A stretch of 64,000 nucleotides of DNA from Yuukianura sp. NJ FZ-2021. Taxonomy: Eukaryota. The DNA is taken from the NCBI GenBank assembly GCA_046563655.1, contig CM102283.1:5642001-5706000 (forward strand). The letters are read 5' to 3'. Of this stretch, positions 3,185 to 28,832 are shown in pieces. The translations under genes were made by a program, and so were the position numbers. Position 1 is the first letter of the stretch. Each line of letters begins with the position of its first letter. Below the pieces are notes generated by a model. The model ran no database searches and was not told the DNA's origin. It saw only the letters and a program-made list of their open reading frames with translations.

Positions 3185-3189
3185 CTGTA

Positions 3190-4100
3190 TGTTAGTCTAC
3201 TCGGCGGCTAACATTCGGTCTAGGCAAGTCCTGTGTGGCGACTTACCTGAATTCTGGTGGTTCTTTCCTTCTGTCCCCGAAGCCTGTCTGCCACCGAAGT
3301 AGCCGATGGCTCTGAGGTGCTACTGTAGATGGAAGCTCGACTGTATATGATGTTATTATTGACGGTACAAAGTAACGATAAGACGTTAAGACAATAGGAA
3401 CGGTAAGATGTTGAAACAATAAGAACGGTAGTTGGTCATCTACCGAGAGACGAAGCTCTCTGGTCAGAAAGGGAATAAAGTTCACAGAACACAATAGCTT
3501 TGGTTGAGTTACTACTGTTTATTGTTAGTTGAAACACCCTACTCCAAGTGGAGACTTCACCGTGTTATTGTTCTAGAGTCGGAGTTCCGCACACCGGAAC
3601 TCCGACCCTTCGAGACTCTCAGTCTGGGCTTATTGTCCGAAGAACATATGGTTTGTAGACCTAACTATTGTTCTAATCAACTGTAACTAACTGCTAACTA
3701 CTAATGTAGTCTGTCCCTTGAAAGCTGAATACTGGATACTAACTAACTTAGACTAACTACTTACTGACTACTAAAAGGTAGACCCTTAGGATCTGACTCC
3801 TTAATTATGACTGACTCTAACAGAGGTGAATACAAGCTGCTTAAGGGTAAGATGACGCACAAGCTCACAAGAGCGTGCGTCATTGACTTGGATAGGTCCA
3901 CGTGTGTTCACGTGTTAGAACTATGTTACTGCCACGCATGCTACTGCCACTGCTACTGCGTCTTAGAGTTATGAATCATGCACACCTGCTAAGTTTAGGT
4001 TACTGCGACTTACTTATGCTACGACTTAACTTATGTTTAAGAGTTATGCGTCATAAGCGCATTAAAGTGTGAGTGAGATGACCCTGTCATAACGCTCACA
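3190..4100 (-). repeat. 3' LTR (911 bp)
   Basis: Near-identical to 17610-18508: about 8 substitutions and one 12-bp indel by eye. Abuts the PPT. Confidence 0.97.
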
Positions 4101-4112
4101 TACTCTTCTCAC
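4101..4112 (-). other. Polypurine tract
   Basis: Minus strand GTGAGAAGAGTA lies immediately before the TGTGAG start of the 3' LTR. Confidence 0.8.
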
Positions 4113-4174
4113 CACGGTGAAATTCCTGTCAAGGAATTTTGAATAGTTTTTTTTTTGCAAAACTAGATAGTTAC

Positions 4175-7100
4175 TCATTTTCTAGCCTGTCCTTTTTCAC
4201 CTTGTCTTGGGTAAGTTAGGCGTACAATGTCTCCTTTTGTGTAAAGTCTAGACATTCTGAATTTATTGTTGACTTCTTGCGTTTTTTGTTGTTGATCAGA
4301 TATGGCTGATCTGAGTTTTGACCATAAAGTTAGAATATTTTCTTGCTTAATGCGCAGATCTTTATTTTTAATTTCTTTTTGAAACGCATAAGGAAAATTT
4401 GGTTGTCGGTTAAATACCATTGAAAATGAAGAATGGTAATTCAAACTTTTCAAAGGCGTTGTGTTAATGCAAAAGTTAATCATAGGAATAAATTCGGACC
4501 AGTTTGAATGATTTTCGGTAACGTAATTTCTTATGATACTATGCCAAATTTGATGTGTCCTTTCTGACAACGAATTTCCTGTACTATTATAATACATTGT
4601 ATGTGTGATTTGTGTATCAAATATTTTTGAAAATGATTTCAAAAATTCAGACGCGTAATTAGAACCATTGTCAACATAATTGCGTTTTGGAGTTGAAAAT
4701 TTTAATAAAACTTCTTTTTCAAAAAAGTCTGCGATATCTTCTGCTTTTGTAGTTTTTAACGCTTTCAGAATGGTGTATTTAGTCATTAGGGAAACACAAT
4801 TAATTATATATTTGTAACCATTGCTTGAAGGCATAGGTCCACAGAGGTCACTTGCGCACACTTCCATTGGGTAGTTTCCAATTGGAAGTTTTCCTGCTAA
4901 TCCATGAATTTTGCCAAAGTGACGCTTTAATCTGTTACATTCGTCGCAGCTCTGAATGTGTTTAACTAAGTCTTGTTTTTGAGATGGCCAGGCAAACAGC
5001 CTTGACAATTTATTATAACATTTCGTATAACCGCAATGTCCGGAAATTGGAACGTTATGTATTTCATGTAGAATAGATTTGCGCTGCTGTTTAGGAACAA
5101 AAATTCTTGAATAGTTAAGTCTCATGTCGAACAAGATTCCATCTGTGATAACGTACCTTGCTCGTGTATGAATGTCATTTTTAATCCAGTTAGTTCTAAT
5201 TTTGACACATTCTTGATCTACTAACTGTAACGCAGCCCAATCTATTGTATTATCAACGTTATACCATTTTGTAAGTGTCTCCGGATTTTTAATAATGAAG
5301 CAAGCAATAAATAAGCAAGATGAACTGGCTTTCTGGTATTTCTATATCATTAGCTTCTTCTGAAAGAGGATCTCTACTTAGCATATCTGGAAGACCCATG
5401 TTTTTGCCTTTTTTATATTTAATTTCGTAATCGAAACCCATGAGGATTACTGACCATTTCGTTAACTCGTTATTCCAGCGTTTTGAAGGTGATAAAGCAT
5501 TCTTGGTTTGGACTAATGGTAATGAATCTGTTATGATTGTAAATTTAATGTCCATTAAATACAAATGAAAGACGGAACAACAAGTAACTATAGCAAATAA
5601 TTCTCTCATGAATGCTGGGTATTCTTTTTGTTTTCCTTTTAACAAAGATGAATGGTAAGCTATTGGAACTTCTAAGTTTTCATTCGTAGTTTGGAGCAAT
5701 GCTCCCCCTATACCGTAACCACTAGCGTCTGTATATAAGATTGTTGGTCTAGATTTGTCAAACCAATGTAATAATGGCGGTGACGTTAAAATTTCTTTGA
5801 TTTTGTCGATTTGTTGTTCGTGGATTTTTTCTAACTTGAACGCTTTATCTTTCTTTAGAAGTTCGTACAAAGGTTGCGTGAGTAAAGAAAAGTTAGGTAC
5901 ACTTCTTCTAAACCAATTAAATGATCCTAATAATCTTTGAAGTTTCTTAACTGACGTTGGATATGAAATTTGTTGAACTGCTTTCAATTTCTCTGGTTGT
6001 TGTCTAACTCCACTGGTACCTACCAGCATTCCTAATAGAGGTATTTCGGGATATCCGAAGTAGCATTTGTGAATAGCTAACTTTGCATTATATTCCCTTA
6101 ACTTCAAAAAAGTTTTTCGGATATCTTCTAAATGATTTTGCCATGTTCTGCTACTAAATCATCAATGTAAATTATATTATTTACCATTAGCGTTTCACCA
6201 AGAATCCAGTGGTAACAACGGGTAAAACTAGATGGCGCTGTACTAATTCCAAACGGTAAATACGTGAATGCAAAGTTCCCTTTCTGTGTAGAAAACGTTA
6301 AGTATTGGACGCTATCTTCTGCCATCTTAATACTCCAAAATCCTCTTTGTACATCACACATACTAAAGTAATTATGCCTATCTTGGATCCAATCCAAGAC
6401 AGCATCAACACTAATCATAGTGTATTCTACAGGTGCAATCATACTATTAAGTTTCACATAATTGATGCAAAATCTAAAAGTTTTTTCTCCATTTGGTAAA
6501 GTGTGTCCAGGGACTAGTACAGTCGACGACACATAATTTGAATTACATGGTACTATGCGACGTAGCTTTAGTAAGTCGTCAATCGTTTTGTTTTCGAATT
6601 CTGTCATCGCTGGCGTTCTTCTGGCTGGTTGGCACCGAAAAGTAGTTGCGTTTGGACGCAACACTACATGGTGGACGTAATTTTTGATTTCTCCTATCTC
6701 TCTCTTGTACGCAAAAACGTCTGTGAATGACTCTAATAATTGGCGCAAGTCGTCTTGTTTACTTTGTTCTAAATCTGGATTAATCCTTGCTAGGATTCTA
6801 TCCAGGTGTTCTTTACGTAAATTGGAAGGTAAATCGGAAAGTTTGAAAAGTAGGTAGGGTTTCATCTATTTCTGTTTGGTTTTGGTTATGTTCACCTTCA
6901 GTTAGCCCGATTGTGGCAATACTCTTTTCATAAAAACTGGGAGGCAAGACTTCTACCCAGTACTTTTTCGAAAAAGGTTTGTAAAATATATCATCGCCCT
7001 CTATAACGTATTCGCCTGCTATGAAGGGATCTTCCCGGGGACTCTGTTCATTAACAAGTCTATACTGATCTGAGAGAGGGACCAGTGTTTCAGTCAGACC

Positions 7101-8033
7101 AGCATATCCTGTTATAGTTTCATTATTATCATTTTCATCTGTCTGTGTGACAGGTTCTTCTGTAATTTCTATGTAATCATTATCATCCTTTGAATCTGTC
7201 CTTTTGACAGGCTTTGTAATTATATTTTCTAGATTTTGAACGTGTGAGCTCAGATTTTTAAAATCATTTTCTTCGATCCCCGTCGAGACAAAATTAGTGA
7301 TGTCTAAGCTCACATGATCAACAATATTGGATCCATCTGTATTATATATTTCATCATCTGGTTGAATGATTGTGTCATATCCTGCTAAGGTGAATACCTT
7401 GCAATTAATCTTCATGTTCTCTATTACTGTTGGAATTATTTTAATATTTTTTCCGTTCCAACTTATTAATTGACGACTAAAGTCAATTACTATGCCTTGG
7501 CAAACTAGGAAGTCGTTTCCTAGTAAGGCATCTAATGAAAAATTCTCAATTACCACCATCGTATGGCTAACTTCAATCTGGTGAATTTTAATTTTCACCT
7601 CGGACACTCCCAAAGATGAAACAGATGAATTCCCGATTCCTTTTAACGTTATACTATTTTCATTTTGAAAAATATTTTCAGATTTTACTAATTTATTATT
7701 AACTACTGAACATTCTGCGCCTGAATCTAAAATTATGCTAATTTGAAAACCATTTACGTAGCCAACCACCCGAAGCAATCCATTTCTCCCTATGCCACAT
7801 ACAATCTGATAACTATTAAAATTTTGAAAATTGGAAGTGATTATGTTTTGTAAATCTTGTGATGAATTATTTAGGATTGGAGAGGTGGAGTTTGGAAAGT
7901 TGTGTTCAACGAATTGACTAGAGGATTGACTGGGGTTTGATTCTCCTGATTGCGGCCCCGAGTCTGTTGTTGAATCGGATGGAAATTCGCCGCCATTCCC
8001 ATCCTCTCTCCATTTTTTGGTTGCATTCTGCAA
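4175..8033 (-). pseudogene. pol: pol polyprotein (protease, RT, RNase H, integrase), broken by at least three frameshifts
   Basis: PR ILDSGAECS...LLGNDFL (6813-8033). RT FRFCINYVKLN, LPFG, YIDD (6128-6865). RH YTDASGYGIG, RELFAI (5289-6107). INT H..GH..C..C and D,D(35)E (SDLCGP, VDNGSNY, SER) at 4175-5134. The integrase GPY/F tail is missing. Confidence 0.95.
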
Positions 8034-9541
8034 GTAGCGTTGCTATGTGTGTTGGAGTTATGTAGTGAACACCATTCTGCGTTCACTCTGTTAGATGGGT
8101 AGAAAGCTTGTCGATTTTGATTCTGTCCGAATCTTTTTTGATTGAATCTGTTTTGGTTTGCCGCAAAGCGATTCTCATTTCCTGTGAATCGGTTTTGATT
8201 TGGAGTAATTTAATTATGATTCGGTGTGAATCGATTCTGATTTTGTTGAAAGCAATTCGCGTCAGAATGTTCATTTGTTCTGTGAAAAGAACAAAACTGC
8301 TGCGGGCTATTTTGGGCCCTAGATGTTCTACAGTCCGCTGCTAGATGTCCTCTTCGGTTGCAAAGTGTGCAAGTAACATTTTTTGGGCATTGTGCGCTAA
8401 AATGTCCTGGCATGGAAGTGAAAACTGAAGGACAAGTGAAACAAACTCCAGTATTAGGATTTTGTGGTCTTGGTGTATCTTGTCTAATTTGATTTTGACG
8501 TAGCGGCTTTGAATAGCCACCAATTCTGGTATTCACTCCGAATTGTTCGGGAGTTGTGTAATCCGGCGAAGTAGGTATATTTTGTTCCTTATTTTGAATT
8601 TTTTCTGGGGTTTTTTGAACAATCATGACTTCCATACGGTTCATTCTTTCCTGGATGTCATTTATGACGTCTTTTTGTTCAAAAAGCTCTGCGGTAGCTT
8701 GTGTCATGACATTGACATCCTTCTGATGTAATAAGAGTTCATTGGTTTCTTCGATGCTCTTCATTGCTTTCAAAAATTCTGGGATTGTTTCTGGCTTTGT
8801 TGCTCCTAGAGCGCTGATGTTGGAAGGTCTTAAATTTCTAATAAGCCACCTAACTTGGCGGGCTTCAGTGATATTTGGATCCATTTGACGAAGTAAATCC
8901 GTCAGTTCATACACATATGTAGTTGCTGATTCATTCAACATCTGCTTCCTATTGATGACCTTTTGTTCGATGGCCATTGTACTGGATTGTCCAAAGGCCT
9001 TAATGAGTTCTCTTTTGAGTGTAGGATAACCTACCAGTAGTGACTGGCCAGGTGGTTTGTTTGAATCCAAAAATGAACAAAGCCAAGCTTCTGCAGTTCC
9101 AGTAAGAGAGGAACTCAGAATAATAGCCCATTCGGTTTGTGGAATTAAATTCCCAGTCATTGCAAATTGGTATTTAGCAATGAATCGCATGACATCTTCA
9201 TTGGTTTTTCCACTAAACGTCGGAATTTTGATTTTATAATTGATTTTTTGTGTAGGGGGTTTTGACCCCGGGATTGGCATTGCGCCTGATTCATCGCTAT
9301 CTTCTTTCAAACGTTTCTTAGAATTTTCTCCAGGATAGTAAGGTTTGAATAGGTATTCCTCTGGATAATTTGGACTTGTAGGAAGGGGTGGATAGACAGG
9401 AATCGTAATTCTATCTCTCTCCAAACCTTTTACAAGTGGGCTATGTCGTACGTTAATTGGAACCCCATTGTGTTTTTTGTCAACAACACTGTCTAGTGTG
9501 TTGTCTATGTCTTTCTGTTTACTTCTAGTATTCGTAGCCAT
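7871..9541 (-). pseudogene. gag: gag, one in-frame TAA at 8212-8210
   Basis: IPTFSG...LTGTAEAW...RKQMLNESATTY capsid-type motifs and knuckle CTLCNRRGHLAADC. ORF 7871-8086 is in the same frame as 8210-9541 and the interval is open. Confidence 0.9.
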
Positions 9542-12500
9542 TTTAATTGACCAATAAACTGTTAAAAAAAACTGTTTGTTAACAAAATAAAAGTCTTACC
9601 TTTAATTGACTTTCTCACGTAGATATGAACAGTGATTCCCCTTGGTTAAAGTTGACAGCTATTTTTACCACTTGGGTTGGGAACTAAAAGCTCTCTTCTT
9701 CTCCGATGTAGATGATAACGAAGGACCGACTCAACCAAACTCAAACTATCAATGTTTCCACTTTGGTTTTTTAAGAATTTTCGTTGATTTAAAAATATTG
9801 AAATTGAATAACGTTAAACAACACAAGTTGAAGTTAAAGTTTGATGGGTAGATTTCTTATTTAAAACTCAAATCAAGAAAAAAAATTTTTTTGAAAACAA
9901 TTTGTTCACCAAAAAATTTTTTTTGTTTTTAACGAATAGTGTTAGTAAGTCTTAACTGACACTAGAATCAAAATAAACTACCGTATTTATAGTAAAGTGC
10001 ACTCAGTTTGTCTTTTTTAAGGCATTTTAGTTCGCATTGATTTTGTTGACGAACCCTTTTCAATTGCGCAATTTTGTAACCAGTCATAGAGAATTTTAAC
10101 GTGTTTCTTTTTTGAAAAATGAATTTTTGTGTTATTTCTGAACACGCTAGTTCATTCCAAATAAAATGTATTGTAACTTCTCATGTACCTTCAACTCACC
10201 TGAAAAAACATAAAGTGAGGAGTTTTTACTTCTATTATTGATTATCAGTAAAAGATTACTAAACACATTTGAAGTGTACCAAGCTTTAAAATTTTGTTTT
10301 ATATCTTATTTTATGATCATAAGGTGCAGTATATTCTCGACAAAAAAAATAGATGAGTGTAATTGATACTCGTAAGTAGAGATTTAATCTGCGGAAATTC
10401 CAAAACGGATTAGAAATTTTCCTTTTAAACTACTCTTCTTTAGTAGCGCCTTTTTTCTAATTTGATTTTAGTTATTTTGCATTAATTAAAATATCCTTTA
10501 CTAAGATCTCTGATTGGGAATTCATTCTTAAAACCTGAATTTCTTTCAGTGACCTTGACAACGCCAAAATTATGGAACGTCTCTTATGGAACTTCTAAGT
10601 TTAAAACTCAGATTTTTAGAAAGCTCAACCTTGTTTCAAGTTATTTTTTGATGAAAACTTCGGAATAGAATCATTTATATTCCAATGTTTAATTTTATAT
10701 AAAAGTTATTGTAAACTTAGTGCCTTAATTCTGTGCGAATGTTCTTGTTTTACTCCTCAGCTATGATTTTTTGATTATTGAAAAATTTCGCTCACCTAGG
10801 GAAAGAAATTCCAAAAAGAATCGAATTCCGTGTCTTCAAAACTTTTTTACATTCCATCAAACGTATAACAGAACTGAAATTCTGGTGCTTTCCCTTCACA
10901 CTAGATAACTCGCCGTACTTGAAAATGAAGCTCTCCCAGTGTTCAGCCATCACTTAAACTTGCTAAACCTTCCAACAATTTCCACTTTCGACTTGCAAAA
11001 TTTCACTCTTTTCTTTTAAAGATTGCTGTCCGAAAATTGTTGCTATTTTTTTAGACAAATGTTTGGAGTCACCCGGAATATGTTTGTTACTTGGCTCAAC
11101 TACTCAAGTTGTTGTTAGGATCGTGACTGACTTTCTTTCTCGAATTGAAAGGCCTTTGGTGTTTCGAATTTTTTTTTCAGAAATGCTGACTTAGCGTGGG
11201 TGGGTGGACTTACGGGGTGCGCGTACCAATCAAAATTGAGCAGCAGTACTGAGGCCATGTGTTGGAATCGTGGTTTTTAGGATTCGCACTTTTTCCCATG
11301 TCAAAAGTTCAAGACATAGTCGTAAATCTCTTAATCTTCTGGCCTCAAAAAAATGCTTTTTCCTTATGGTGCCCATAAGGAATCCCAACGGTCACTTTTT
11401 GACAGATGTGACCTTTCCCTGATCCCGGATTTTAATTTTGCAAAATAAGAGAACAACAATTTTAATCTTAACTGGCCTTAACCAGTTTTAACTTTTAATA
11501 AAATTTTCTGAAAAAATTAATTTAAAAAATTTTCCATCTTTATTAGTTACCTATTCTACCTGAGCGATTGTATACTATATAGCTTTTGTGTCTGTCTGTC
11601 CGTCGGCCTGTCACTCATCAGATTATGAATTTTAATTTTAATTTTACCAAAAAATTTTAATAAAAACTACTTTGTTGTTGTATATGTCTGTCTGTTCGTC
11701 TGTCTGTCTGTCTGTATCTCTGACTACTTTTGATCATGAATATACTCAAATTCGAAAATGGGTTTAATTTAGTAGCTTTGACCTTGCTTATTTATTTCTC
11801 ATAAGAATATTCTAAAAATTATATGTGTTTGGGTCAAAGGTCAATAGTAACGTTTTCTTTCCTATATAAACATGGAATTTGACCAATACGAAAGTTGTTG
11901 GTCACAACTAATCAAGCATCCTTTGTATAGGTGTTTCCTATCTAAAGTTAAATGCTTCGTGGTCGAAACTAAGAATTTCGAAAATTAATTATTTTTAAAT
12001 TTTTATCACAATTTTGAATTTTCTGCTAAATTTCTTACTGTTCACATTAAGTTCAACTTATTCTGGCATATATTAAGTAAAAATTTAAATTATTAAGAGA
12101 TGAGTTATCTTTCAGTACTTATGGTACGTCGTTTTCAGTCAGCTGTTTCGTATTTCAAAATTTCGCGCAAAATTTTCAAAATTTTGGTTTTATTGATCAA
12201 AAACCCATCATTACGTTATTTGGTTATGACCCTTTCAGGTAATTGCAAGTTGAGTCATGTATTTTTCCAAAAAAGTTCAAAATTTTTGCACTTTTGGAAT
12301 TAGATTTTGGAAATACCGTTAATCTTCTTTTAGTGGTCGGTATGTTATGGGTAATGAATTCTAATGGTCCTTGCTTTGTTTACTTCTTGAAATGTTTATA
12401 AAATTGATGTTATAGCTAACTAATATTAAGTATAGTATTCTTATGATTTGTTCAAGTTAATTTGAACTTGAGTTTTTTAGTTTAAAAATACCGTAAATAT

Positions 12501-14598
12501 TCAATTTTTCATTCAATCAAAAAATCAATCAATCAATCAATCAATTCAATCAAAAAAGTGCTAATTTTTCTATAAAACTGGCTTGTCGTAAAGTGAATCC
12601 TACTTATATGCTGATAGCTAATACTTCTCTTTGAGAGTTTTGCGGTATTCGTGAAATTTACAGTTTTTCCTCTCTGTAAATTACGTTTATGAAATTTTTT
12701 TGTTCCAAACCTAATTGTTAGTGTAAGATTTAATGTAGTTAATCTACTTCCCTAGTAATTTTTTAGAAAAATTGATTTTGTTACTGGTTTAAATATGGGC
12801 AAAAGAATTACGTGCCATCGCCTAGTACAGGAAACTTTACGGTAAAATTTCGAAAAATTTGCAAAAATTCGGATTTTTTTTGACGGATTTTTATTTTTCG
12901 GTTATTTTGCTAACTTTTTCCTTGCTTTTCATCCAACAAAGTGGATTTTAAGCTTGAATATAATTTCGAAAAGAATTTCAAGCCAAGAACTTCCATCGTC
13001 ATAGATTTCACAAGTCAACTTCTTGTGCTGACTACCTTCGACTCGACTCTTGTTGACATTTGGCCTTCTATATGTTGTTTTTCCAGATTTGGCATCTGGA
13101 CAAATTTGTCTTGACCTCTGCCAACGCTATGCAGATTCCTGACCTACGTTTGCAAAACTTAGTGAGGGGGTGAGAGGACTATCTCTAATTTTTAAATTGT
13201 AAAATTTTTATTCTATTTAGAGTTCCGCTTCGAATTATTATTTTCACTCAGCTTTACGCCATTTACCTAAGTGGACCTTTAAAGGGCTCTTTCGAGACAG
13301 GTCCTTCTGTGACCTTTTGAAACAGCGGCCATAGTGAAAAAAAATTTTTTTTTACAATTTTGTGTACGATGTCATTTTTTCAAAGAATTTACGGTATTGA
13401 CCCTATTGTGATTTGAATTCTGTTTTAGAGTTTTGACCCAGCATTATAGCTACCTATTGTGAAGTGTCATAAAAATTCTTGGATCGTCTAAAAGGTGCTA
13501 AAAGTTCCGTTTAAGTGCCCCAAGTCTACCTGTTCAAGTCGAAGTCTCAAATCTGTTCGGTTCTTACAGACTAAAAAAGGACCCCTGGGGTTTTTGGAAA
13601 TTCACATCGGGATCATCGAGATAGTGAGTCTCTCAACCTGTTTTCCACTTTCTCTTTTTATATTATTGCCATGAGTGGGTTGTGGCAAGTTTCAAGCAGT
13701 GAACATTTCACAAGTCCCATTCCCATGCTTTCTCCTGTATTGAAAATTTTCTAAGTATTTTGGTCAAAGTTGACCTCTGACAACCTCAAAAACGATCCCT
13801 ATGAAAATTGTTGAGGGTCATGAGTGGAACATTTTTTGTTCTATAACGTACTACTCTGTGACCTTTCCCCGAGGTCACAGGTCAATCCAAAGAATTTTTC
13901 CGTCGCACTCTTTTAAGCTACTATAATGTCCCCTCAAAATCGGTTCAAATTCGAAGTTTGTTTTTACTGCACAAAAATACCTTAAGTGCAATAAAACTGC
14001 TGTGTGACTTTTAATTTTATTTTTTGTACTTAACTAAGTCTGAGTGAGAGTAATGAATCTGAATTATGATTTTTTCGTAAAATGCTAAAGATTTTCGTGA
14101 ATTTTGATTTCCAAGCATTAGTTAGAACGGTCATAATTCTGAAATTCAGAATTGTCTGTTATAACTTCATTTTTGTGTTTTCTTTTTACAGAGTGAAAGA
14201 TAACCTCAACTTGCACTTTAAAATCTTGAACTTGTCGATTTGCAAGTGTGTGCTTTTTGGGACCAGCTACTTCCGATTTATATAGTGAGTATTTAAGTAA
14301 AATTTTTGCAAATTTCTTACTTATGAAATTTTGGCTTTTCAAATTAAGCATTTCGTCAAGTCCTTTGTGACACAAAGTTATTTTACGTTGTTAACTGCTT
14401 CATGGAGATGCAGTTGGGGAATTTGTTAATCTATAATCTGCTGTTTCCAAAAAAAAAATTTTTTTTTTCAAATTTCAAATGTTTCTTGTAAAACATCTTT
14501 CTATTGGTTGCTTTCAGCCCTATAGTCAAGTATTAAGAAGCCCAGACACAACAACAAAAAAAAATTTTTTATTTTATAGTCCTACTTTTGTCTAAAGA

Positions 14599-15468
14599 AT
14601 GACAGAACGGGAGTTCAGTTCGTGTGAATTCACTCCTTATTCGGATTATAATTTTGAGTCTGCTTGTGGGTACTTCAATCGACTTATTTTACGTCATTTG
14701 CCTTTCTCCCTTGACATTGAGGAAGAAGAAAGGAGGGAATTATTTCAACATTTACCGCGATATTTTGAAAATGAAGAGGCCGCGGCTTACGAGCATCCCT
14801 TGTTCAACTTGCCGTATTGCGTTTGTAAACAAATTGCTTCTTATTTAAATTATGACGATGTTCTCAAAATAGCGCATTTCTTTCCAATTTTTCAACATTA
14901 TAATCAAACAAATTCAAACTTAGCTACCACTCAGGGTGAACTTTTTGATTTGGGGATGTCTAGTGACTTAGATGTTTATGGCCCTCCAGGTTTGTCGTAT
15001 GTTTCGCGCTGTTTGAGATCAATTGCCTTAGGCAGTTTTCCTATTTCAATTTTAGATTTCTTGTCATATACTCCTGATATTACTATTAATTTAAATTTTT
15101 TAGAAAATTTTATGGGATTATCTGATTTCCGAAAATTATTGTCAAATAGTCATGTTTGTCGGGGGAACGGGGCTAAGGACCGTTTGATTCATGTTACCTC
15201 AGTGCCTCGTTATGCTAGGTTAGAATATGATAACTATCGATTAGTATTAGCTATGATTAGACGTAATCGATTAGATTTAGCTGTTGATTTTATGGTTTCT
15301 GAACCATTTGGAAATGAGCTTCACTATGATTTTAACGAAATTTCATTATTTATCGTAATTTATGAGGCTATTATGCATCGTCGCTTAAGAGAACTTAGAA
15401 GGAGCGTTCTTGAATTTTTGAATCGGCCTTATACTGAGGAAGACTTAGAAAATGTTATAGTTATTTAA
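14599..15468 (+). CDS. Intact 289-aa antisense cargo ORF inside the LTR element, F-box-like motif
   Basis: Uninterrupted ATG-TAA in very AT-rich DNA. HPLFNLPYCVCKQIASYLNYDDVLKI matches F-box spacing (LxxLP...IxxYL..D...). AATAAA at ~15520. Confidence 0.75.
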   Translation: MTEREFSSCEFTPYSDYNFESACGYFNRLILRHLPFSLDIEEEERRELFQHLPRYFENEEAAAYEHPLFNLPYCVCKQIASYLNYDDVLKIAHFFPIFQHYNQTNSNLATTQGELFDLGMSSDLDVYGPPGLSYVSRCLRSIALGSFPISILDFLSYTPDITINLNFLENFMGLSDFRKLLSNSHVCRGNGAKDRLIHVTSVPRYARLEYDNYRLVLAMIRRNRLDLAVDFMVSEPFGNELHYDFNEISLFIVIYEAIMHRRLRELRRSVLEFLNRPYTEEDLENVIVI

Positions 15469-15774
15469 TGTAATCATACATATTTTGTAAAATTTCCTAT
15501 AGGAGCAATCAATTTTTGAAATAAAATCAGTTAGTTATTGTTTATGAATTTAGCGCTTTGTAATTTTTTAGAAAGTTTTGGATTTTTCTGTCGTCTGTTT
15601 TTCTGAATATGCAACCAATCTCTTGTGATGTAAAAATAGTATGGAACTTTACATGTACGTACGTACACTAATGTACAGAATTTTTATTATTTTTATTTAA
15701 AAATAGTAACTTTTTATTTTCAGTTTTTAATTTTTCAATTTTTTGTTTGAATTTTCTTGATAGATTTTAAAATC

Positions 15775-17339
15775 ATGGGAAGACATAGAAAAGTTCCTCG
15801 GAAATCAGTTCCTCGGAAAATCAGGCGTCATTCCGATTCTCGTGTTAACCAGTCTCCATGTTCTACCTCTACACGTTCTAGTACAATCACTTCCTCGATT
15901 TCTGTTCCTTTAAAACGTTTGCCACTCCGTACTAACTTGACTAAATCATCCACTACTATTACTGTTTCGGGCTCTCCTATTTCTTCCATTTCTAAATCTG
16001 CAAACAGCGTTTTTTGGAAAGTAGGAAAATGACACTAACGACGACTTGGTTTACTATCGGTGTGACTTTCTGGCTGGAAATACTGTTCTGTTCATTTAAC
16101 AAATGTAAAAAAAGCGAAATTGCGACAAAGGCTATACTCCCATAAGAAAAGGAGTCTCAAAAAAAGATCCTCGCTCCCTCCTTCCCTCATTGAGAAAAGA
16201 GGGAGTTTCCTTCCTGACACCTGGTCTTTCCAAAAACTATTCGAAATTAGAGTTTGCGCGGCAAGCACATGTTAACATCGTTAAATTATTGTACAAATTA
16301 CTCCAATGATAATGGAATACTACAATAAATCTGCATAAATTACTTTTAGAGTTGATTTAATTGTGCGTCCAACAATTTAATCGTTGCAACATGTGCTTGC
16401 CGCGCAACATCTAATTTCAGAGGTTTTTCGGAAAGGCCAGGTGTCAGGAAAGAAGTTCCCTCTTTTCTCAATGACGGAGAGAGGAAACAAGGATCTTTTT
16501 TTGTGACATTTTTTTCTTATGGGAGTATAACCTTTGTCGCAATTTGGCTTTTTTTACATTTGTTAAATGAACGGAACAGTAACTCAACACCTGAAATTTT
16601 AGGTGTTCCTAAATTTCTTGATTATGGTCTTCCTGGCTACCTACGTTGTGAAAAGATTCATGTTCCTGGAAATTTTTATTGTGGTGCTTGTGAGTCGGAA
16701 TTTTACGCTCGTACTCGTAGTGTTCTCAAGCGGGATGTAGGAAGTATGGCTTCTTCTCCGCTGATTTTTACATCGAATGACCCCTGGGTCACGCATGTTA
16801 ACGAAAAACATTTGAAACAAGTTCGTGTTCGACAACCATGCGGGTGTAATAGACTAGCCGGAGTGGCTCTAAATGAGTTACATCGCTATTCCTGTATATC
16901 GCCTTGCCTGTGTGGCCTCAAAGTTACCACAGTAAGTATTTTTAAGATATTATGCGCAAATCACCTCTATATCTGCAAAATATTTACTTGGATTTTCTAA
17001 TTCATTTTTCCCAGGTCAAAGAAAAAGAAGATCACTGCCTCAATTCGAGAAATCCCTCGATCAAGAAACGCGGTTGTTATTACGATTCCACTTGTGGGAA
17101 ATATTTCCCCACCCAAATGAAATTATACACGCACTTAAAAAATAAGTGCACTCGTTGTCACCTATGTCAGGAGATCATAGATAGTTCAGTAGAAACTAGA
17201 ACTGAACAATCAGTGCTTCTATTGTTCCTTTTGTGGTACTCCACAAGACTCCCGGGAAGCCATGCACAATTGCGCCTTAAGTTGTCTGCGACGCGTTGTG
17301 TACGTCAACCAAAATGAATGTGAGCCCAGGCCTTCTTGA
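15775..17339 (+). pseudogene. Antisense spliced Cys/His-rich (zinc-finger-like) cargo gene, interrupted by a MITE
   Basis: Basic/Ser-rich N-terminus, then a 1-nt shift in the A-run at ~16030. The frame is restored across the MITE (…CDFLAGN|NSTPEILG…). Phase-0 GTAAGT…CCCAG intron 16932-17014 joins two ORFs. Contains CGKYFPTQMKLYTHLKNKCTRCHLC and a shifted CFYCSFC tail. Confidence 0.65.
16083..16579. mobile_element. Foldback MITE with ~200-bp imperfect inverted arms, TA target duplication (Tc1/mariner-type)
   Basis: TA|CTGTTCTGTTCATTTAACAAATG… mirrors …CATTTGTTAAATGAACGGAACAG|TA. Removing it plus one TA restores the flanking reading frame. Confidence 0.9.
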
Positions 17340-17588
17340 TTTAAAATTTTGTTTTATGATTTGGAACTATTTTATTATGTTTAGTGGAAACATTAGTTGA
17401 GTTTGGTTCGAGTACTTATGTAAGTTGTTTAGCTTACAAGTTGAATTGACTCTAGTTATAATTCTTATTGGTGCATAATTTTGAAATTCCCTATTGTACT
17501 TTGTGCTTCATTACTATATTAAAAAAAATTTTGTTTTTACTTACCTTATTGTAGCTTCTGACAATAATTTTCAAGTAGCGAAGAAGGA

Positions 17589-17606
17589 ATCCGGTTCGAA
17601 GGACCA
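17589..17606 (-). other. Primer-binding site, tRNA-Tyr type
   Basis: Minus strand TGGTCCTTCGAACCGGAT, 3 nt inside the 5' LTR, is complementary to the ...CCGGCTCGAAGGACCA 3' end of eukaryotic tRNA-Tyr (one mismatch). Confidence 0.85.
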
Positions 17607-17609
17607 AAT

Positions 17610-18508
17610 TGTTAGTCTACTCGGCGGCTAACATTCGGTCTAGGCAAGTCCTGTGTGGCGACTTACCTGAATTCTGGTGGTTCTTTCCTTCTGTCCCCGA
17701 AGCCTGTCTGCCACCGAAGTAGCCGATGGCTCTGAGGTGCTACTGTAGATGGAAGCTCGACTGTATATGATGTTATCATTGACGGTACAACGTAACGATA
17801 AGACGTTAAGACAATAGGAACGGTAAGATGTTGAAACAATAAGAACGGTAGTTGGTCATCTACCGAGAGACGAAGCTCTCTGGTCAGAATGGGAATAAAG
17901 TTCACAGAACACAATAGCTTTGGTTGAGTTACTACTGTTTATTGTTAGTTGAAACACCCTACTCCAAGTGGAGACTTCACCGTGTTATTGTTCTAGAGTC
18001 GGAGTTCCGCACACCGGAACTCCGACCCTTCGAGACTCTCAGTCTGGGCTTATTGTCCGAAGAACATATTGTTTGTAGACCTAACTATTGTTCTAGTCAA
18101 CTGTAACTAACTGCTAACTACTAATGTAGTCTGTCCCTTGAAAGCTGAATACTGGATACTAACTAACTTAGACTAACTACTTACTGACTACTAAAAGGTA
18201 GACCCTTAGGATCTGACTCCTTAATTATGACTGACTCTAACAGAGGTGAATACAAGCTGCTTAAGGGTAAGATGACGCACAAGCTCACAAGAGCGTGCGT
18301 CATTGACTTGGATAGGTCCACGTGTGTTCACGTGTTAGAACTATGTTACTGCCACGTAGGCTACTGCGTCTTAGAGTTATGAATCATGCACACCTGCAAA
18401 GTTTAGGTTACTGCGACTTACTTATGCTACGACTTAACTTATGTTTAAGAGTTATGCGTCATAAGCGCATTAAAGTGTGAGTGAGATGACCCTGTCATAA
18501 CGCTCACA
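17610..18508 (-). repeat. 5' LTR (899 bp)
   Basis: Direct repeat of 3190-4100; followed on the minus strand by the PBS. Confidence 0.97.
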
Positions 18509-18765
18509 CTGTACAACTGGCGCTGATTCGCAAAAAATCTTTACCATTGTAACTTTTTTTATTGATAACTCAAAAACTATTACAAAAAACAACCACGAAA
18601 GACTCAAACAACCAAAACACTAAAACTCAAATCCAAACTTTCCACCCTTCCCGCCAACTGGGAGGAAGGGACACCACGCCATCCTCTTATCCACACGAGA
18701 AGGGGTGAAGAAACAGCACAACACAGAACAATAGCGATTAATCGATCCAAAAAAAATCAATAATC

Positions 18766-19897
18766 TCATAAGAGTAGTCCACATAGTCTGCTAACTAACA
18801 GCACACATAAGCACGCCACTAAAAATCCAACAAACGCTACACACAATTTTTCAAAACTTTCCACCCTCCCACCAAAATCAAAATCCACCCTAGAATCCTC
18901 CCCTCTGAAGAAGAGGACGCCACGCCATCCTCTTATCCACACGAGATAGGGCGAGGGCACACTCCAATCCAAAACAATAGTGTCTAATCGATCAATAAAT
19001 TCACCGTTCTGATGGACATAGTCTACTAACTCAGAAGCAACTAAAAGTTTCTCCCCTTTCAGTATATCCTTCTTTGCTACCACCTTCACGACTGCCTTTC
19101 CATGCCTAGTACCTTTCAGGAAAATTATGTATTGCTTTTCCTGGTTACAAGTGTGATTGATGAAGGGTGCGATGTTTCCACGCGTAGTACCATCGACAAA
19201 CAGACGTTCCTCATCACGACTGACCGAATTTCCAAGTGACGTTACAAGCGACGTGAATAACTTGACTGAGCTATACGCAGAATCGAAAAACATAAATTTT
19301 TAACATTAATTCACTTTTAAAAAAATAAAAAAAACGCTATAAAACCAATATACATTTCATTAGACAAAGACAACTTATCAGTAGTTAGACTCAGTTTGGT
19401 TTGTAGATCGATAACTTGTCCAGCGTACAAAAACAAGAAATCTCCGGCAGATAAGTTCCGCATTGCTTTCAAGCCCAGCCCACCTACTGTTTCCTCATAA
19501 TAGCAATAACAGGAGTTCACTAGGTCCGCTTTTCCCCAGGTCACGATTTGATCATCATAATATACTCCACTAGTTGGTGTAAATCTAGTTCGTAGATTGT
19601 TCAACATAGGGAAGACAGCAGTATCGTCTTTGTAATACGGAAAACCGAACTTATTCATCTGAAAGACGTGAGACATTATGGATCTATATAGAATGTTATG
19701 AATAATTCAACGGATTCGGTATTTTATAATACTCACCACGAATTAATCTCACACAGCTAGAAACATAGGACAACCCTGGTGGGCTATATACATCTAAGTC
19801 GCTGGACATCCCTTGATCAAAAAATTTACCTTGAGTAGTGGCTACGTTTAAATTAGACTGATTATAATGGCAAATCGAACAAGGGGTGCTCGTAAGC
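18766..19897 (-). pseudogene. SET-domain gene with F-box-ORF-related N-terminus, spliced and decayed
   Basis: SET motifs GGLGLKAMRNLSAGDFLFLYAGQVI, VDGTTRGNIAPFINHTC and VVAKKDILKGEKL. An in-phase GT-AG intron at 19353-19271 joins the two SET halves. A second candidate intron (19736-19684) is out of phase. The N-terminus is homologous to 14785-15025. Confidence 0.8.
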
Positions 19898-20332
19898 GTT
19901 AGGTAGGCACATAGAGTATCAGGACCCACCCCATCTTCTCCCTCCTCACCTAAAGGACCAGACCACCCTGTTCCTCCTCACATAAGGAGCAACCCCCCTC
20001 TCCCTCCCGTCCTCCATCTTCTTTCTCATTGTTCTGGCCGCCATCTTGCTCTTTCCCTCGTCCTGACGCCATTTTGTTTATTACAATGGCCACCACTTTT
20101 TTTGTTTTTTTATTGGATGGGTGTACGTGGACATCGATGGACAAGGTAGTTCTGGACTGCACAGAATGGAGCAACATTCTGCTTTAAGTTTTGATTTATT
20201 CTCATATTATTTTCTTGCATGGGTGAATGTAAGTATCGATGGACATGTCAAAGGTCAAGGTCGTTCTGTTCCATGGTCATGTCAAGAGTCTAGGTCGTTC
20301 TAGCCGTGTGTAAAGTTTTTTAGCGGCTCGCT

Positions 20333-20760: not shown

Positions 20761-20841
20761 CTGAAATTAAAATTGATACAGATTAATACTTTAAGTCTTC
20801 TCTAGCAACACATTTTTGTCAGTCTGCGTTTATATTTCAAC

Positions 20842-21741
20842 ATGGAAACTTCTCGTGCTCCCACTAAACTACATTCTACCGGTACTTCCAGCGATACAGT
20901 ACACATTGATTGTGAAACGATACTCTATGGCGAAGAATTGCGTCCGTCAAAGTTTCTACTATATAATTCTGAAGTCGTTGACCTCATTGACGATGGTCGT
21001 GCTTTTGGTCATTGGTTCCGCAAGGAAAAATCCGCTTTTCCTCTTGAAACTTGTTCGGCACTGCATAGCCTTTTGATTACAACATCAATAAATGCGAGGC
21101 TTATGGAGGCCAGACTGAACTCTAGGATTATGGACATGGCGGGCATTGCATCTTATATGCATGGCTGTGAAAATGCGCTGGTCTTGTGCCCAAATTCTGT
21201 CATACTCATAATGTCAAGCGCACTTGCAAAATTTGGATTTCCAGAAAAGGAGACTGGAGTCTTCCAACGTGTCAACAACATTCGCTCTTTCAGTGACGAG
21301 AAACTGGAGATATATGAGCAGTTTAAAGTTCTGAATAACGTGGCCACATTGGATTCCATGATTGATCATTTTAAATTGTATTTTGTGCTTCCAGAAAATC
21401 TGCAAAGTGTGCTCAACAGCAAGTTGGAAACGAATAGAAAAGTTTCGATTGTAATTGTGATTCACTACAACCTTCTTCCAACCCATCAGGTACATCTAAT
21501 ATATGAAAGATTCAAGGAAAGGTTGGTTTTCATTGGTCATCCGGCGCATCGAAAAATAATGGACGATTGGCAATTTCAAGTTGATAAGTGTGACCCCGTA
21601 AGCATAAGAATGTGTGCTACTCGTGTGCAGCAAGTGCTAAGAAGCTGGACAATTCTGGTTGGGACTCTAGCGATTCAGTCTTGTGTTGGCAGTAGAAGTA
21701 ATAGGTTGTTGAAATGGCAAAAACCCAGGATTCTCAATTAG
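20842..21741 (+). CDS. 299-aa ORF of unknown function
   Basis: Long intact ATG-initiated ORF with globular-looking composition. It overlaps the integrase start by 28 bp. No family recognised. Confidence 0.55.
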   Translation: METSRAPTKLHSTGTSSDTVHIDCETILYGEELRPSKFLLYNSEVVDLIDDGRAFGHWFRKEKSAFPLETCSALHSLLITTSINARLMEARLNSRIMDMAGIASYMHGCENALVLCPNSVILIMSSALAKFGFPEKETGVFQRVNNIRSFSDEKLEIYEQFKVLNNVATLDSMIDHFKLYFVLPENLQSVLNSKLETNRKVSIVIVIHYNLLPTHQVHLIYERFKERLVFIGHPAHRKIMDDWQFQVDKCDPVSIRMCATRVQQVLRSWTILVGTLAIQSCVGSRSNRLLKWQKPRILN

Positions 21742-22333
21742 AAAAGGATTATACGACTCAGACACAGAGTGTGAGTTTTGCTGGCCTGCCTACCACTTTC
21801 TTGCGTGCGACAAAGCAAAAAAGTGACAAACAGGCTAGAGAAGAACTTCAGTCGATCCCAAGCTATAGTTTATTTCGTAAAGCGAGGCAAAGGTTTCCTA
21901 CGCGGAAAACGATTGTTCCCACGCTTCATTTTAGTTATGGAGCAGACTTGATGTCAGTCCAAAATGTTAGGACTGACTGTAGTTAACATGTAAACAAAGG
22001 AGTTCAGTGCATTCTACTTGTTGTGGACTTGGTTTCGCGTGTTCTTAACACGGCGCTACTCAAAACAAAAAACCAGCATCACGTAGAGGCTGGACTACGT
22101 AGCTGCTTCACTGCCATGGGCCAGTATCCAAAGTTTCTATTGGTAGACCAGGTGTTGGCATTACTTTTTTTTTATCCTCAAGGCTACTTTTAGAGTCTAC
22201 TGAGTCTACTAAAAGCTGATTCTCTTAGGGTGGCGAATTTTACAACAAAACTGTCGAGAGTCTGTTGAAGAAGCAGCGTTTGTGAGCGTCTTAACCAAAC
22301 GCTGAGGTTAAAGCTGAGCCGAATTAGTAGCTA
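21714..22333 (+). pseudogene. Polinton/Maverick-type DDE integrase, intron-containing, degraded
   Basis: LEKDY…SFAG…YSLFRKARQRFPTRKTIV…YGADL…NKGVQCILLVVDLVSR…LKTK…PKFLLVDQ|GGEFYNK…CERLNQTL. In-frame TAA at 21984. Phase-0 GT-AG intron 22152-22228. Deletion and frameshift before the catalytic Glu. Confidence 0.8.
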
Positions 22334-25529: not shown

Positions 25530-26130
25530 TCAACCCCTCTGTCTTGTTGTCCTCTCCACATATGGTCCATCCGGTGGTACGATGTAAAACGCTGCACCAG
25601 ATTTCCCGTCAATACGTGAACCGTCAGTGTAGCAGTTTATCGCATCACTAGGAGGACCACGTTTTGCCCGTTCCTTCCACTGCTTCCTCGAGATCACTTC
25701 TATCTCAAAGAATCTCTTAGTCGGCAGTATGTTATATCTCTCGCAAGGAAATCCCATTTCTGGGATATCGCATGCTAATGATTCGCAGATTTGTGCGTGA
25801 GTTTGGGTCTTCAGAAAGTTGACCCTAGCGGGAATCCAGTCACTAGAGATTCTAAGCCGGTACATGGTCCGGAGTGCAACCTCCTTAAGATGATGTCTAG
25901 CGGTCTTAGGTTCAATAGAGCCTCCATGGCTGCTGTCGGTGTAGATTTCATCACTCCGAAAGTCGCCAACAGGGCAGCTCTTTGAACCTTGACCAGAGGT
26001 TTTATGGTATTGGGTTTATGAGCAGCCTCTGTCCAGACCAGCCCACCATAGGTTATGGCTGGTCTAACTGTGGCCTCGTTAATCCAGTGTGTGTACTGTG
26101 GGAAGGCCCTTTCGTTTTTCCAATAGCGCG
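25530..26130 (-). mobile_element. Non-LTR retrotransposon fragment (post-RT region and start of RNase H; R1/LOA-like)
   Basis: VRPAITYGGLVW…VQRAALLATFGVMKSTPTAAMEALLNLRPLD, then a frameshift to …CYTDGSRIDGKSGAAF. Truncated at both ends. Confidence 0.85.
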
Positions 26131-28127
26131 TTAGGTCAGTAATTGAATACCTGTATGAAATACCGGTAGATTTAAGAAATTAAGAAATCAACTATGTTCT
26201 TTAGACAACAATTTTTTCTAGTCTTTAATCGTTAATTCACATAGCACCAAACTCTCCCTCTCATTTTATATGATTGTAAGCACCGTCAATCCCGATCATG
26301 AGGCCTTCAAATGGAGAATAGCTCTACATCAAACGAAAGTCAAATTAAAACAAAATATAACAATTCAACAACTTTCACATGACTTGCACAAGTACTTACA
26401 TGTATTCACAACATCAGTTTTACGAATTTCGCCAAGTTTTGAAGTTGTGGTTATACTATTTCAAAAAATCAAATTTTTTAAAATAAAACGTTCCATTCTT
26501 TCTGGAAAAGTATAACATTCAAAATTCAATAACGCTTACCTTAAACAAATAATCAGAATTAGGATTTATAAGTTTCTGAATCCCATGAATTTTCCAAATA
26601 CGGCTGGGAGAAATCACGGTGTAAAGAATTCGAGTGATGGCCCATAGCAAAAACAAACTCCAGCAATTTCAAAAAGGCGGGTTTTTAACATTTTGGCTGC
26701 CAGTCTCTGTAAAAATATTTATACACAAGTTAACAGGTTAGATCAAATTAACAGACCTAACCTAACAAAAGACTTAAGTCGCAAAGAGGTTGCGACTAGG
26801 TCCCAAGAACTCGCGACCATAATACAACTGGGTGCGACCAGATCGCAAAGGTGTGCGATTGGTCAAAAATTTAGTTGCTGATTACTTAGTAGTGGCACTT
26901 CTCAACTACTGAATAAATGGTGTATGATTTTAACTTAAGTCGCAGTGCCGCCCATCTGCGACTGTAATTTATTAATTTTATGACCAAAAACGGTTACTGG
27001 TCTATTAGATTCTCGTAAAACAAGTCCAATTGTCTCTCTCTCACTCCACTTTTTTCCAAGTCTCACTTCGCCCCTGTTTCCAGTCTTATAGATTTGGTTC
27101 CCTTCGTTTACTGTAGGTCCCATGAACTTTCACCTTCTTTGCTTTTCTCCACTGGGACTTTAGACTGTGGCCCGGTGGAGTGAGACTGTTCTAGTAATAA
27201 ATTTACTCTAGCATTGTTGGAATTACACTGTGGATGAGCTCTCCTTTGTTCAAAAAACTTTGAAAATTTTTCACCTCCCAAGATTGCGTTTCAGCTCCTG
27301 ACAAACCCCTTCTACACATAATGTTGTTTTCTGAATATTGAGAGGATGGCATCTGGAAAAAACCGTAGGCCCCGCCTCTTCCAGAAGTAACCTTCTCCAA
27401 TCCTGGCAGGTGTGAAATAATGAACTCAAACACAGAAACACCAAACTTGGTGGCAGTATAGTTTAATAGCGCTGTTCGCCCTGACAGAGAGTACCCTTGA
27501 CACTTCCTACTGATGGGGGTCATCCCCCCGAAGATGGGGATGACCCCTAGGTCAACTGTGACTGGCTGTTCGTAGAGCAGTGAAAGAAGGAATATGCTAC
27601 CCAAGACGAATGACTCCCCTAAATGAGCACGCGCCCCTGTTTATATACCATCGACTGCCATGGTCACTTTCCCCTCCACTCCACTCTCCTCTGTGGTGTG
27701 CTGTGAGTATGGATTCCAATGCAAGTGCATGGGAATCCATGCTCACAATTCTCCCCCACCGAAGTAAAAAGTGTCTCAGGCATGCCTCTCATGTATGTAT
27801 ACACGGTCTATACAGATCCCTGTGTCCTATAACTTATGTGCCATTTTCTGTGAGCTTTGCAAAATTTTCTCTTCGATTTTTGTGAATTATGAAATTTTTT
27901 TGTATGATTTTCGCTTAACCTAAATAAATTTATAATCCCAACACCTTAATATAATTGTAGAAGTATACCTAGACAGAGAAACTGAAATACAACTGAAGGA
28001 AAGAAAGACAGAAAGGAATTAACAATTAGCACTAGTACATCTTTCAAGTTAGTAAGTAAAATTCGAGTAACTTATACAAAAAATGTGAGATTGGCTACTT
28101 GTTATTGTAGTGTTGTGCTGTACGTGA

Positions 28128-28758
28128 GTGTCACCTAGAGTGTCACCTTTCTTCCTAATGTACGGTCGAGAAGCTAAACTACCAGCTTTAGCGCTACTCC
28201 CGGAATATACGGCATGCCAAGAGGTCGAAGACCTTCAGAAGAGGATTTCTGAGGCCAGACTGCTAGCGAAAGCACACATCGAGGAGGAGCAAGAAAAATA
28301 CGCCAATAGGGTCAACTCAAAATTGACGCCGCCTCCGGAGTTTGAAATTGGATCCGAAGTCGTCATTCGAAAATTTGCAAAGACTTTCAGTTAAACTCAT
28401 GGAGTACTTCAGTGGACCCTACAGGGTGATGGAAAAGAGGTCACCAGTTAACTATGTCGTGGAATATGGAGATGGTAAGACGAAACATCGCAAAACTGTC
28501 CACGTCGACAAAATGAAACCATATTCAAGAAGGGAATAAAATGAATTGCATTCTGTCCAACCTAATCAGGCCAACAATTCCGTTTGCAATGCTCAAGGAA
28601 CATCGGAAAATCTAAAAACTCCGAACGAGACAAATTCCAAAAAATTGCCGAAGAGAGGCAAGAAGGAGCATATTTCAACGCCAGTGGAAGCTTCAGAGGA
28701 ACCTCAGTGTCGTTATAACTTGCGCAGCAGAAGACCTAATCAAACCCAAGCACAATAA
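28128..28758 (+). pseudogene. pol: Gypsy integrase C-terminal fragment
   Basis: SPFFLMYGRE…FEIGSEVVIR, frameshift, then FSGPYRVMEKRSPVNY…VHVDKMKPY (GPY/F motif). After an in-frame stop comes an RYNLR tail. Confidence 0.9.
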
Positions 28759-28832
28759 AATCAACAAGTACAAAAATCTTCAAATCGAATTCGAATCAAT
28801 TTTCTAAATCACGAAATTTGGAAATTCAAGAA

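Follow-up and report, generated by a model that had tools for sequence, protein, structure and literature searches.

A 43-codon coding module shared by an open reading frame inside a Ty3/gypsy-type element and the 5' side of a neighbouring SET gene in Yuukianura sp.

The window analysed here is the whole stretch of 64,000 nucleotides (nt) at positions 5,642,001 to 5,706,000 of the forward strand of contig CM102283.1 (assembly GCA_046563655.1) from Yuukianura sp. NJ FZ-2021. It contains a long terminal repeat (LTR) retrotransposon of Ty3/gypsy type, an intact open reading frame (ORF) located inside this element (the inner ORF) and a SET gene situated about 260 nt outside the LTR-bounded unit. 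A module of 43 codons was found both in the inner ORF and on the 5' side of the SET gene (the outer copy), and the relation of these two stretches as old paralogous exons, within a region rich in transposons, is well supported. Regarding their origin, an about even chance is given to the explanation that a paralogous unit of an orphan family was exon-shuffled or fused upstream of the SET gene, the outer copy having later lost its F-box core. The features compared are the following:

14599 to 15468, plus strand: intact intronless ORF ("cargo"), antisense to the element, with AATAAA at 15520
14785 to 14813, plus strand: shared stretch 1 of the inner copy (AYEHPLFNLP), 26/29 nt identical to 19897-19869
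14814 to 14895, plus strand: F-box-like core, inner copy only and absent from the outer one (sub-threshold Pfam F-box match, Atlas F-box clusters)
14896 to 15024, plus strand: 43-codon module, inner copy (blastn, tblastn, ratio of non-synonymous to synonymous substitution rates, dN/dS)
19741 to 19869, minus strand: 43-codon module, outer copy (blastn, tblastn, dN/dS)
19869 to 19897, minus strand: shared stretch 1 of the outer copy (AYEHPLFDLP), out of frame with the module (26/29 nt match)

Alignment of the inner module (14896-15024, plus strand) with the outer one (19869-19741, minus strand) by blastn displayed 105 identical positions out of 129 nt (81.4%) without any gap (E 1.2e-31), and the encoded peptides are identical at 33 of 43 residues. 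The 24 nt differences are distributed 8/3/13 over codon positions 1, 2 and 3. According to the Nei-Gojobori method, synonymous differences (Sd) amount to 14.0 for 27.8 synonymous sites (S) and non-synonymous ones (Nd) to 10.0 for 101.2 sites (N), which corresponds to a dS of 0.83 and a dN of 0.106. The resulting dN/dS of 0.127 (Fisher p 1.2e-5) rests on two sequences and cannot tell which lineage was constrained, nor until when. In either copy, numerous stops interrupt the two remaining frames of the module. Taken together, both stretches are protein-coding sequence that diverged under purifying selection, and a shared exon-like module is supported by their comparison. A search of the 64-kb window with both proteins (tblastn) revealed no third copy of the module, and the longest exact run common to the inner and outer copies is at most 11 nt.

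The whole region common to the two copies, shared stretch 1 included, has a length of 240 nt in the inner ORF, compared with 157 nt next to the SET gene, where 83 nt are missing. The missing part is the F-box-like core YCVCKQIASYLNYDDVLKIAHFFPIFQ. Since 83 is not a multiple of three, the outer AYEHPLFDLP and the outer HYNQ... module stand in different frames. Downstream of the module, no blastn or tblastn match was obtained between the inner and outer sequences. The split between the two modules must be far older than the insertion of the LTR element, because their dS of 0.83 (24 differences in 129 nt) contrasts with an LTR-LTR divergence of 0.9%. All five sequence statements of the original prediction about the pair are confirmed by these results: the 33/43 identity with many synonymous third-position changes (13 of the 24 differences fall at position 3), the AYEHPLF(N/D)LP peptide common to both copies, the differing C-termini (SET in the outer one) and a divergence far above that of the LTRs (24/129 versus 8/899). 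It had also described the F-box core, of about 83 bp, as deleted from the outer copy; the deletion stands, whereas the F-box label is sub-threshold and the frame shift had gone unnoticed.

The outer module was then considered with the SET gene that follows it on the minus strand, for which the following organisation is proposed (a slash marks the splice point):

19733 to 19977, minus strand: open frame holding the outer module up to the proposed donor GA/GTATTA, with no upstream methionine (frame analysis)
19684 to 19732, minus strand: proposed 49-nt intron GTATTA..TATAG, inferred as the only one of four donor/acceptor pairs keeping the frame open
19354 to 19683, minus strand: SET exon A, N-terminal half, with an alternative ATG at 19676 (N part of the MLL SET domain, E 0.18)
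19271 to 19353, minus strand: proposed 83-nt intron GTATAT..GTATAG between the SET halves (in-frame join ..LSNE-I-SVKLF..)
18766 to 19270, minus strand: SET exon B, encoding the C-terminal half (motifs INHTC and ELVDY) and closed by the stop 18766-18768 (Pfam SET and PDB matches)

The frame of the outer module is open over 79 codons (19977-19741), and both other frames carry several stops. Homology between the inner and outer copies stops at 19741 and the proposed donor is found 8 nt further, the first intron base being 19732. When this donor is combined with the acceptor whose first exon base is 19683, an in-frame join (...VRLIRGE-SIMSHVF...) is obtained, and with the proposed splicing the module and both SET halves form 359 open codons up to the stop at 18766. 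With each of the other three donor/acceptor pairs, two of which use the better-looking donor G/GTGAGT, the frame closes after 82 codons. Non-consensus donors are used in this genome, as a catalase gene located in the window has a GTCAGA..TTTTAG intron. With the proposed splice sites, the end of homology falls at an exon limit without loss of frame, which points to exon shuffling or gene fusion at the DNA level. The splice from module to SET may well be used.

Exon B was recognised by the Pfam profile PF00856 (27.1 bits versus a cut-off of 22.4, E 5.7e-6) and matched KMT2A, KMT2B and SET1 sequences of the PDB with E values of 0.005-0.02, RFINHSC and PFINHTC being aligned (E 0.005) at the NH.C motif. 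Exon A gave a weak match to the N part of the KMT2A SET domain (E 0.18), and a search of exon B against longer proteins returned none at E 0.001. The predicted SET domain is complete and colinear with that of KMT2A, with both halves joined in frame, the NH.C motif and the tyrosine of the C-terminal DY. An AATAAA lies 205 nt past the stop, some 50 nt short of the edge of the LTR, the insertion point of the element being just past the 3' end of the SET gene.

In this 3' region, the last 50 or so codons of the SET frame are repeated just after the stop (18669-18753 versus 18915-18999, 79%), a repeat also recovered by tblastn (49% over 47 residues, E 3.5e-6). Contigs from four public DNA runs (X1 to X4) of two studies were compared with the window, 31 of 1971 contig pieces being listed; stretches without cover in X3 and X4 were left uninterpreted. 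Joints in run contigs (18508 to 18665, 18656 to 18881 and 18817 to 18900) represent length variants of the SET 3' region. At the other end of the gene, a 511-nt contig of run X2 covers 19741-20251 with 3 differences and ends exactly at the limit of homology. Since no exact run longer than 11 nt is shared with the inner copy, the latter cannot cause a branch of the assembly graph at 19741. Chance, a heterozygous bubble or a further paralog may explain this contig end.

According to the explanation favoured here, the two stretches would be paralogs of one coding unit, in which an F-box-like motif is followed by the 43-residue module, and this unit would belong to a lineage-specific family of which no relatives can be detected in public databases. 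The inner copy would represent an intact and intronless gene of 289 codons with an F-box-like N half, a C half of no recognised family and a poly(A) signal of its own. The outer copy, on the other hand, would be the 3' part of the unit, joined long ago at the DNA level to the 5' side of a SET gene by exon shuffling or gene fusion, ending at a splice donor and readable in frame into the SET exons. A frame-shifting deletion of 83 nt would later have removed the F-box core from this outer copy. Given this frame-shifting loss and the lack of a start in the frame of the module, the outer locus encodes no F-box-SET protein; its product today would be at best a module-SET protein starting in an unseen upstream exon.

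As for the inner copy, its ORF appears to be a real gene, or to have been one until recently. It is 289 codons long from ATG to stop and 290 codons from stop to stop, in DNA of about 32% guanine plus cytosine (GC). When the DNA of 9600-16080 was shuffled (n = 300), the longest open frame reached 162 codons, and the length of the ORF is hence not due to chance. An AATAAA is present 52 nt past the stop. No homolog of the ORF was recovered at E 0.01 by a word-indexed search (677 candidates), at E 0.001 among 1.84 billion cluster representatives (0 matches) or at E 10 among PDB sequences with phmmer (0 matches). Searches for relatives of the module with an alignment of its two copies yielded 150 pattern matches in metagenome contigs and 17 in viral contigs, none of which was confirmed.

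Further copies of the inner ORF were nevertheless present among the listed pieces of the DNA runs: one in X1 (about 98% identity over 14498-15029, 11 differences), one in X2 (about 96% over 15017-15398, 15 differences) and one in X3, under a second organism label (about 97% over 14878-15086). Among the same pieces, a 1261-nt contig is alike only over 14663-15495, that is approximately the ORF, with 137 differences and 8 gaps. Its likeness, confined to about the ORF, suggests that at least one diverged paralog exists in which conservation is limited to the coding part.

The F-box label of the inner protein was assessed by several means. The Pfam profile PF00646 matched residues 68-91, LFNLPYCVCKQIASYLNYDDVLKI, over profile positions 1-24 of 43, with E 0.25 and 11.8 bits versus a cut-off of 20.5, and the whole inner ORF had no Pfam match at E 0.1. 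In the Atlas feature search, based on a language model, the ten best named clusters for residues 55-145 were all F-box clusters (top score 0.90), and nothing relevant was returned for the whole protein. Other observations are less favourable to the picture of a constrained F-box gene. The Atlas match shares 119 features with the F-box clusters, versus the usual 170 or more for true family members, and neither PF00646 nor PF12937 matches above its cut-off. In the C half, the five best-supported differences from run contigs comprise three that change a residue and two silent ones, which gives no sign of constraint on that half among close copies. It is likely but unproven that the inner protein is F-box-like, and its F-box-like part may bind SKP1. 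A structural model obtained from the single sequence with AlphaFold2 (AF2) was unusable, with a predicted local distance difference test (pLDDT) score of 37.9.

The position of the inner ORF requires a description of the element, whose parts are as follows:

3190 to 4100, minus strand: 3' LTR of the Ty3/gypsy-type element (LTR pair match, TG..CA ends)
17610 to 18508, minus strand: 5' LTR of the same element (98.0% match to 3190-4100 over 911 columns)
3185 to 3189, no strand: target-site duplication CTGTA, second copy at 18509-18513 (flank sequence)
4175 to 9595, minus strand: gag 8210-9595 (ATG 9541), protease 6813-8042, reverse transcriptase (RT) 6128-6865, RNase H 5289-6158 and integrase 4175-5341 (Pfam, ORF list)
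9596 to 17609, minus strand: leader between the 5' LTR and gag, AT-rich with nested repeats over 9600-16000
16081 to 16581, no strand: nested foldback repeat in the leader, resembling a miniature inverted-repeat transposable element (MITE), TA-flanked (inverted arms, loose ends)

Domains in the order gag, protease, RT, RNase H and integrase, LTRs ending in TG..CA and a 5-nt duplication together correspond to a Ty3/gypsy-type LTR retrotransposon. The gag and pol domains are spread over five separate stop-to-stop frames, not over the continuous frames of an autonomous copy. Between the two LTRs, 8 mismatches in 899 aligned bases were counted, besides 12 gap columns, which corresponds to the divergence of 0.9%. 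Identical CTGTA sequences at both outer flanks imply that the 15.3-kb unit 3190-18508 is a single insertion. As gag-pol is carried by the minus strand, the LTR at 17610-18508 is the 5' one and is located about 8 kb before the gag ATG. By eye, a consensus-like donor AAG/GTAAGT was observed at 17544 on the minus strand, about 65 nt after the 5' LTR, together with a T-rich tract ending in AACAG/ at 9559 on the same strand, 17 nt ahead of the gag ATG. If both were used, these sites would excise the whole 8-kb leader, including the inner ORF, from a spliced gag-pol message.

Being inside a unit bounded by one CTGTA duplication, the inner ORF has the location of a captured gene, from which it is inferred that it travelled with the element. 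This cargo status is doubtful, considering that the ORF is antisense and that it is housed in an AT-rich leader invaded by repeats, parts of which are skipped by contig joints. The alternative is that the ORF belongs to a separate block, a nested mobile element or other inserted DNA, which entered the leader after the transposition of the element or independently of it; its probability is estimated as close to even, although somewhat below. The antisense orientation relative to gag-pol is in line with such a block, as is the base composition of 9600-16000, mostly 23-43% GC in 200-nt steps and far more AT-rich than gag, the LTRs or 16600-17400. The leader is, moreover, a mosaic that has taken up other repeats, at least three of high copy number. 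The foldback at 16081-16581 ends in arms that are 96% complementary over a length of 70 nt. Its two borders (16081 and 16581) show loose ends in three of the four DNA runs, its summed depth is very high in all four, and a near-identical 447-nt contig occurs under the second organism label. Very high summed contig depth, a sum over contigs and not a copy number, was also noted at 11502-11918 (13768 in X1) and at 13587-14003 (1954 in X1), the latter with strand-switch joints at 13806/13891, and both are presumably nested high-copy repeats; loose ends accompany these deep repeats. Joints in the run contigs skip 9901-12263 and 12191-13331, i.e. 2.4 kb and 1.1 kb of the AT-rich block, and the contig about 83% alike matches the ORF only, without its flanks.

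On the other hand, neither terminal repeats nor a target duplication were found around the AT-rich block, where only short, AT-rich and chance-like pairs were detected. The identical CTGTA copies indicate one LTR insertion, and the LTR divergence of 0.9% leaves a short time for a secondary insertion of 6 kb. Antisense additional ORFs are also known as stable parts of LTR elements (PMC7264820). Six small frames of the leader, the frames upstream of the outer copy and 51214-51681 gave nothing above the Pfam cut-off.

Returning to the outer copy, its joining to the SET gene has to be weighed against a second alternative, which is less likely than not: the outer stretch could be a dead relic, that is a broken fragment of a cargo-type gene, cut off at both ends and internally deleted, which by chance stands upstream of an independent SET gene whose start would be ATG 19676. 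In that case the in-frame splice would be coincidental, and the low dN/dS would reflect constraint on the family before the fragment was stranded. Several observations count for this possibility and against the explanation favoured here. The 83-nt frame-shifting deletion parts AYEHPLFDLP from the module, homology ends abruptly at 19897 with stop codons just upstream, and these two features look like decay. No methionine is present upstream of the module in its frame, and near its 5' end SET exon A has ATG 19676, from which a protein with SET alone could be translated. The stronger-looking consensus donor G/GTGAGT at 19736 leads to a closed frame, so that the in-frame model needs the weaker GTATTA. 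Finally, the region is packed with transposon debris. The relic is harder to reconcile with a module frame still open, between frames with several stops, up to 19741, and with a homology boundary placed only 8 nt from the single donor, in one pair out of four, that yields the 359-codon frame. Furthermore, 10 non-synonymous versus 14 synonymous differences at this dS leave little room for a long neutral phase. Shuffling or fusion of the module onto the SET gene is the simplest account of these observations, with the about even chance given above.

Exchange between mobile elements, as put forward by the original prediction, is unlikely. It supposed a modular F-box effector family passed between an LTR family and an integrase-linked cluster containing the SET gene, with an intact F-box-module-SET gene existing elsewhere and perhaps with one element inserting preferentially into the other. 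The presence of the module in a gene inside the LTR-bounded unit and in another just outside, the further copies of the inner ORF in the DNA runs and the sharing of additional ORFs by unrelated retroelements in bdelloid rotifers (PMC5408684) would suit such a family. Against it, nothing places the SET gene in a mobile element, no intact F-box-module-SET was seen and the searches of cluster representatives, the word index, metagenome and viral contigs gave no relatives. As to the claims underlying this scheme, the F-box-SET fusion keeps one half, the module being spliceable in frame to SET exons, and loses the other, the F-box core and a start being gone and no intact fusion being present here. 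The frames neighbouring the SET gene gave no integrase family in Pfam that would back the proposed mobile cluster. For the terms "effector" and "preferential insertion" no evidence was obtained here, one juxtaposition being unable to show an insertion preference. Among these neighbouring frames, 21705-22193 was read as integrase-like, which Pfam did not confirm (no family at E 0.1), and a 311-codon frame at 20806-21741 had no Pfam family above cut-off.

Elsewhere in the window, an open frame of 732 codons (28128-30938, plus strand) has no Pfam family; it contains an RSKR site with a hydrophobic stretch behind it, as well as a membrane-like segment and numerous cysteines. It comes directly after a retroelement integrase C-terminal domain at 28327-28539 (PF22938, E 5e-9). 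By eye it reads as an env-like fusion glycoprotein, and it probably forms the 3' part of a second, retrovirus-like element. The catalase gene already mentioned (39918-41698, minus strand) has two exons separated by its intron of about 100 nt; its identity does not exceed 51% among the 120 matches listed, which are spread over many animal and protist groups. It must be either a divergent copy or the gene of a poorly sampled lineage. At 44701-45927 (minus strand), a double-stranded RNA-binding motif (PF00035, E 4.8e-13) follows, on its downstream side, a frame in which a WW-like motif, LPEGW...P, is present, an arrangement that resembles DGCR8/Pasha and would be consistent with an animal host. 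At 918-1258 an 18-nt unit is repeated 14 times in tandem, and at 25530-26179 (minus strand) a YTDGS...G motif was read by eye as the RNase H of a non-LTR retrotransposon, with no Pfam match at E 0.1. No tRNA gene was found in the window.

With regard to known systems, both the shuffled paralogous exons and the additional ORF of the LTR element belong to known kinds. Exon shuffling and chimeric genes are familiar in multigene families, for instance in fast-evolving F-box families with variable C-terminal domains. As in these, one N-terminal coding unit is found here on unrelated C-terminal domains with a break at an exon boundary. In contrast to them, the present family has no recognisable members elsewhere, its F-box stays below threshold and the F-box core is gone from the copy joined to SET. 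If the module-SET splice is used, it would document exon shuffling building a new SET protein from an orphan family. KDM2A and KDM2B, which combine a JmjC demethylase domain, an F-box and leucine-rich repeats (LRR), are F-box proteins with a chromatin-modifying domain. The likeness to them, an SCF adaptor motif together with a histone-modifying domain, would hold only if the ancestral outer gene was composed of F-box, module and SET, since the present outer locus encodes no such architecture. Viral F-box proteins destroying host silencing factors follow a logic comparable to the very improbable possibility that an animal LTR element copies a working antisense gene for an F-box-like adaptor, in which the module, a partner-binding surface also shuffled onto a SET methyltransferase, could let the element's protein compete for the partners of the SET enzyme or send them to an SCF ligase as a counter-silencing device. 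In a limited literature search, which does not prove absence, neither an F-box-like ORF in an LTR element nor an F-box-SET protein was met among the titles and abstract beginnings listed.

The closest parallels to the inner ORF are provided by LTR elements of plants and rotifers. According to PMC7264820, antisense additional ORFs (aORFs) without database relatives are carried by plant LTR retrotransposons (gene23 of maize Grande, rice RIRE2 and Silene Retand), mostly between pol and the 3' LTR and in most copies of a family. The same source reports no similar genes outside the elements, does not settle where these ORFs come from and describes transduced genes as usually sense-oriented. The inner ORF resembles what is described there (PMC7264820) in being intact, without database relatives and antisense to gag-pol inside LTRs, with its own promoter and poly(A) signal presumed, and differs in lying upstream of gag in an 8-kb leader and in having, for one part, a relative outside the element, namely an exon of the SET gene. 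Should it travel with the element, it would constitute an animal antisense additional ORF upstream of gag with a traceable relative in a host-type gene. In LTR elements of bdelloid rotifers, diverse ORF3s are captured and shared among retroelement classes (Rodriguez, Kenefick and Arkhipova 2017, PMC5408684), and the term "F-box" is absent from the main text of that paper. Unlike the inner ORF, those ORF3s are in sense orientation downstream of pol, are env-like or encode a GDSL esterase or a DEDDy exonuclease, and are common to retroelement classes and not to a SET gene (PMC5408684). Both cases nevertheless have an extra ORF in an LTR element with relatives in other genomic contexts (PMC5408684), pointing to modular gene sharing.

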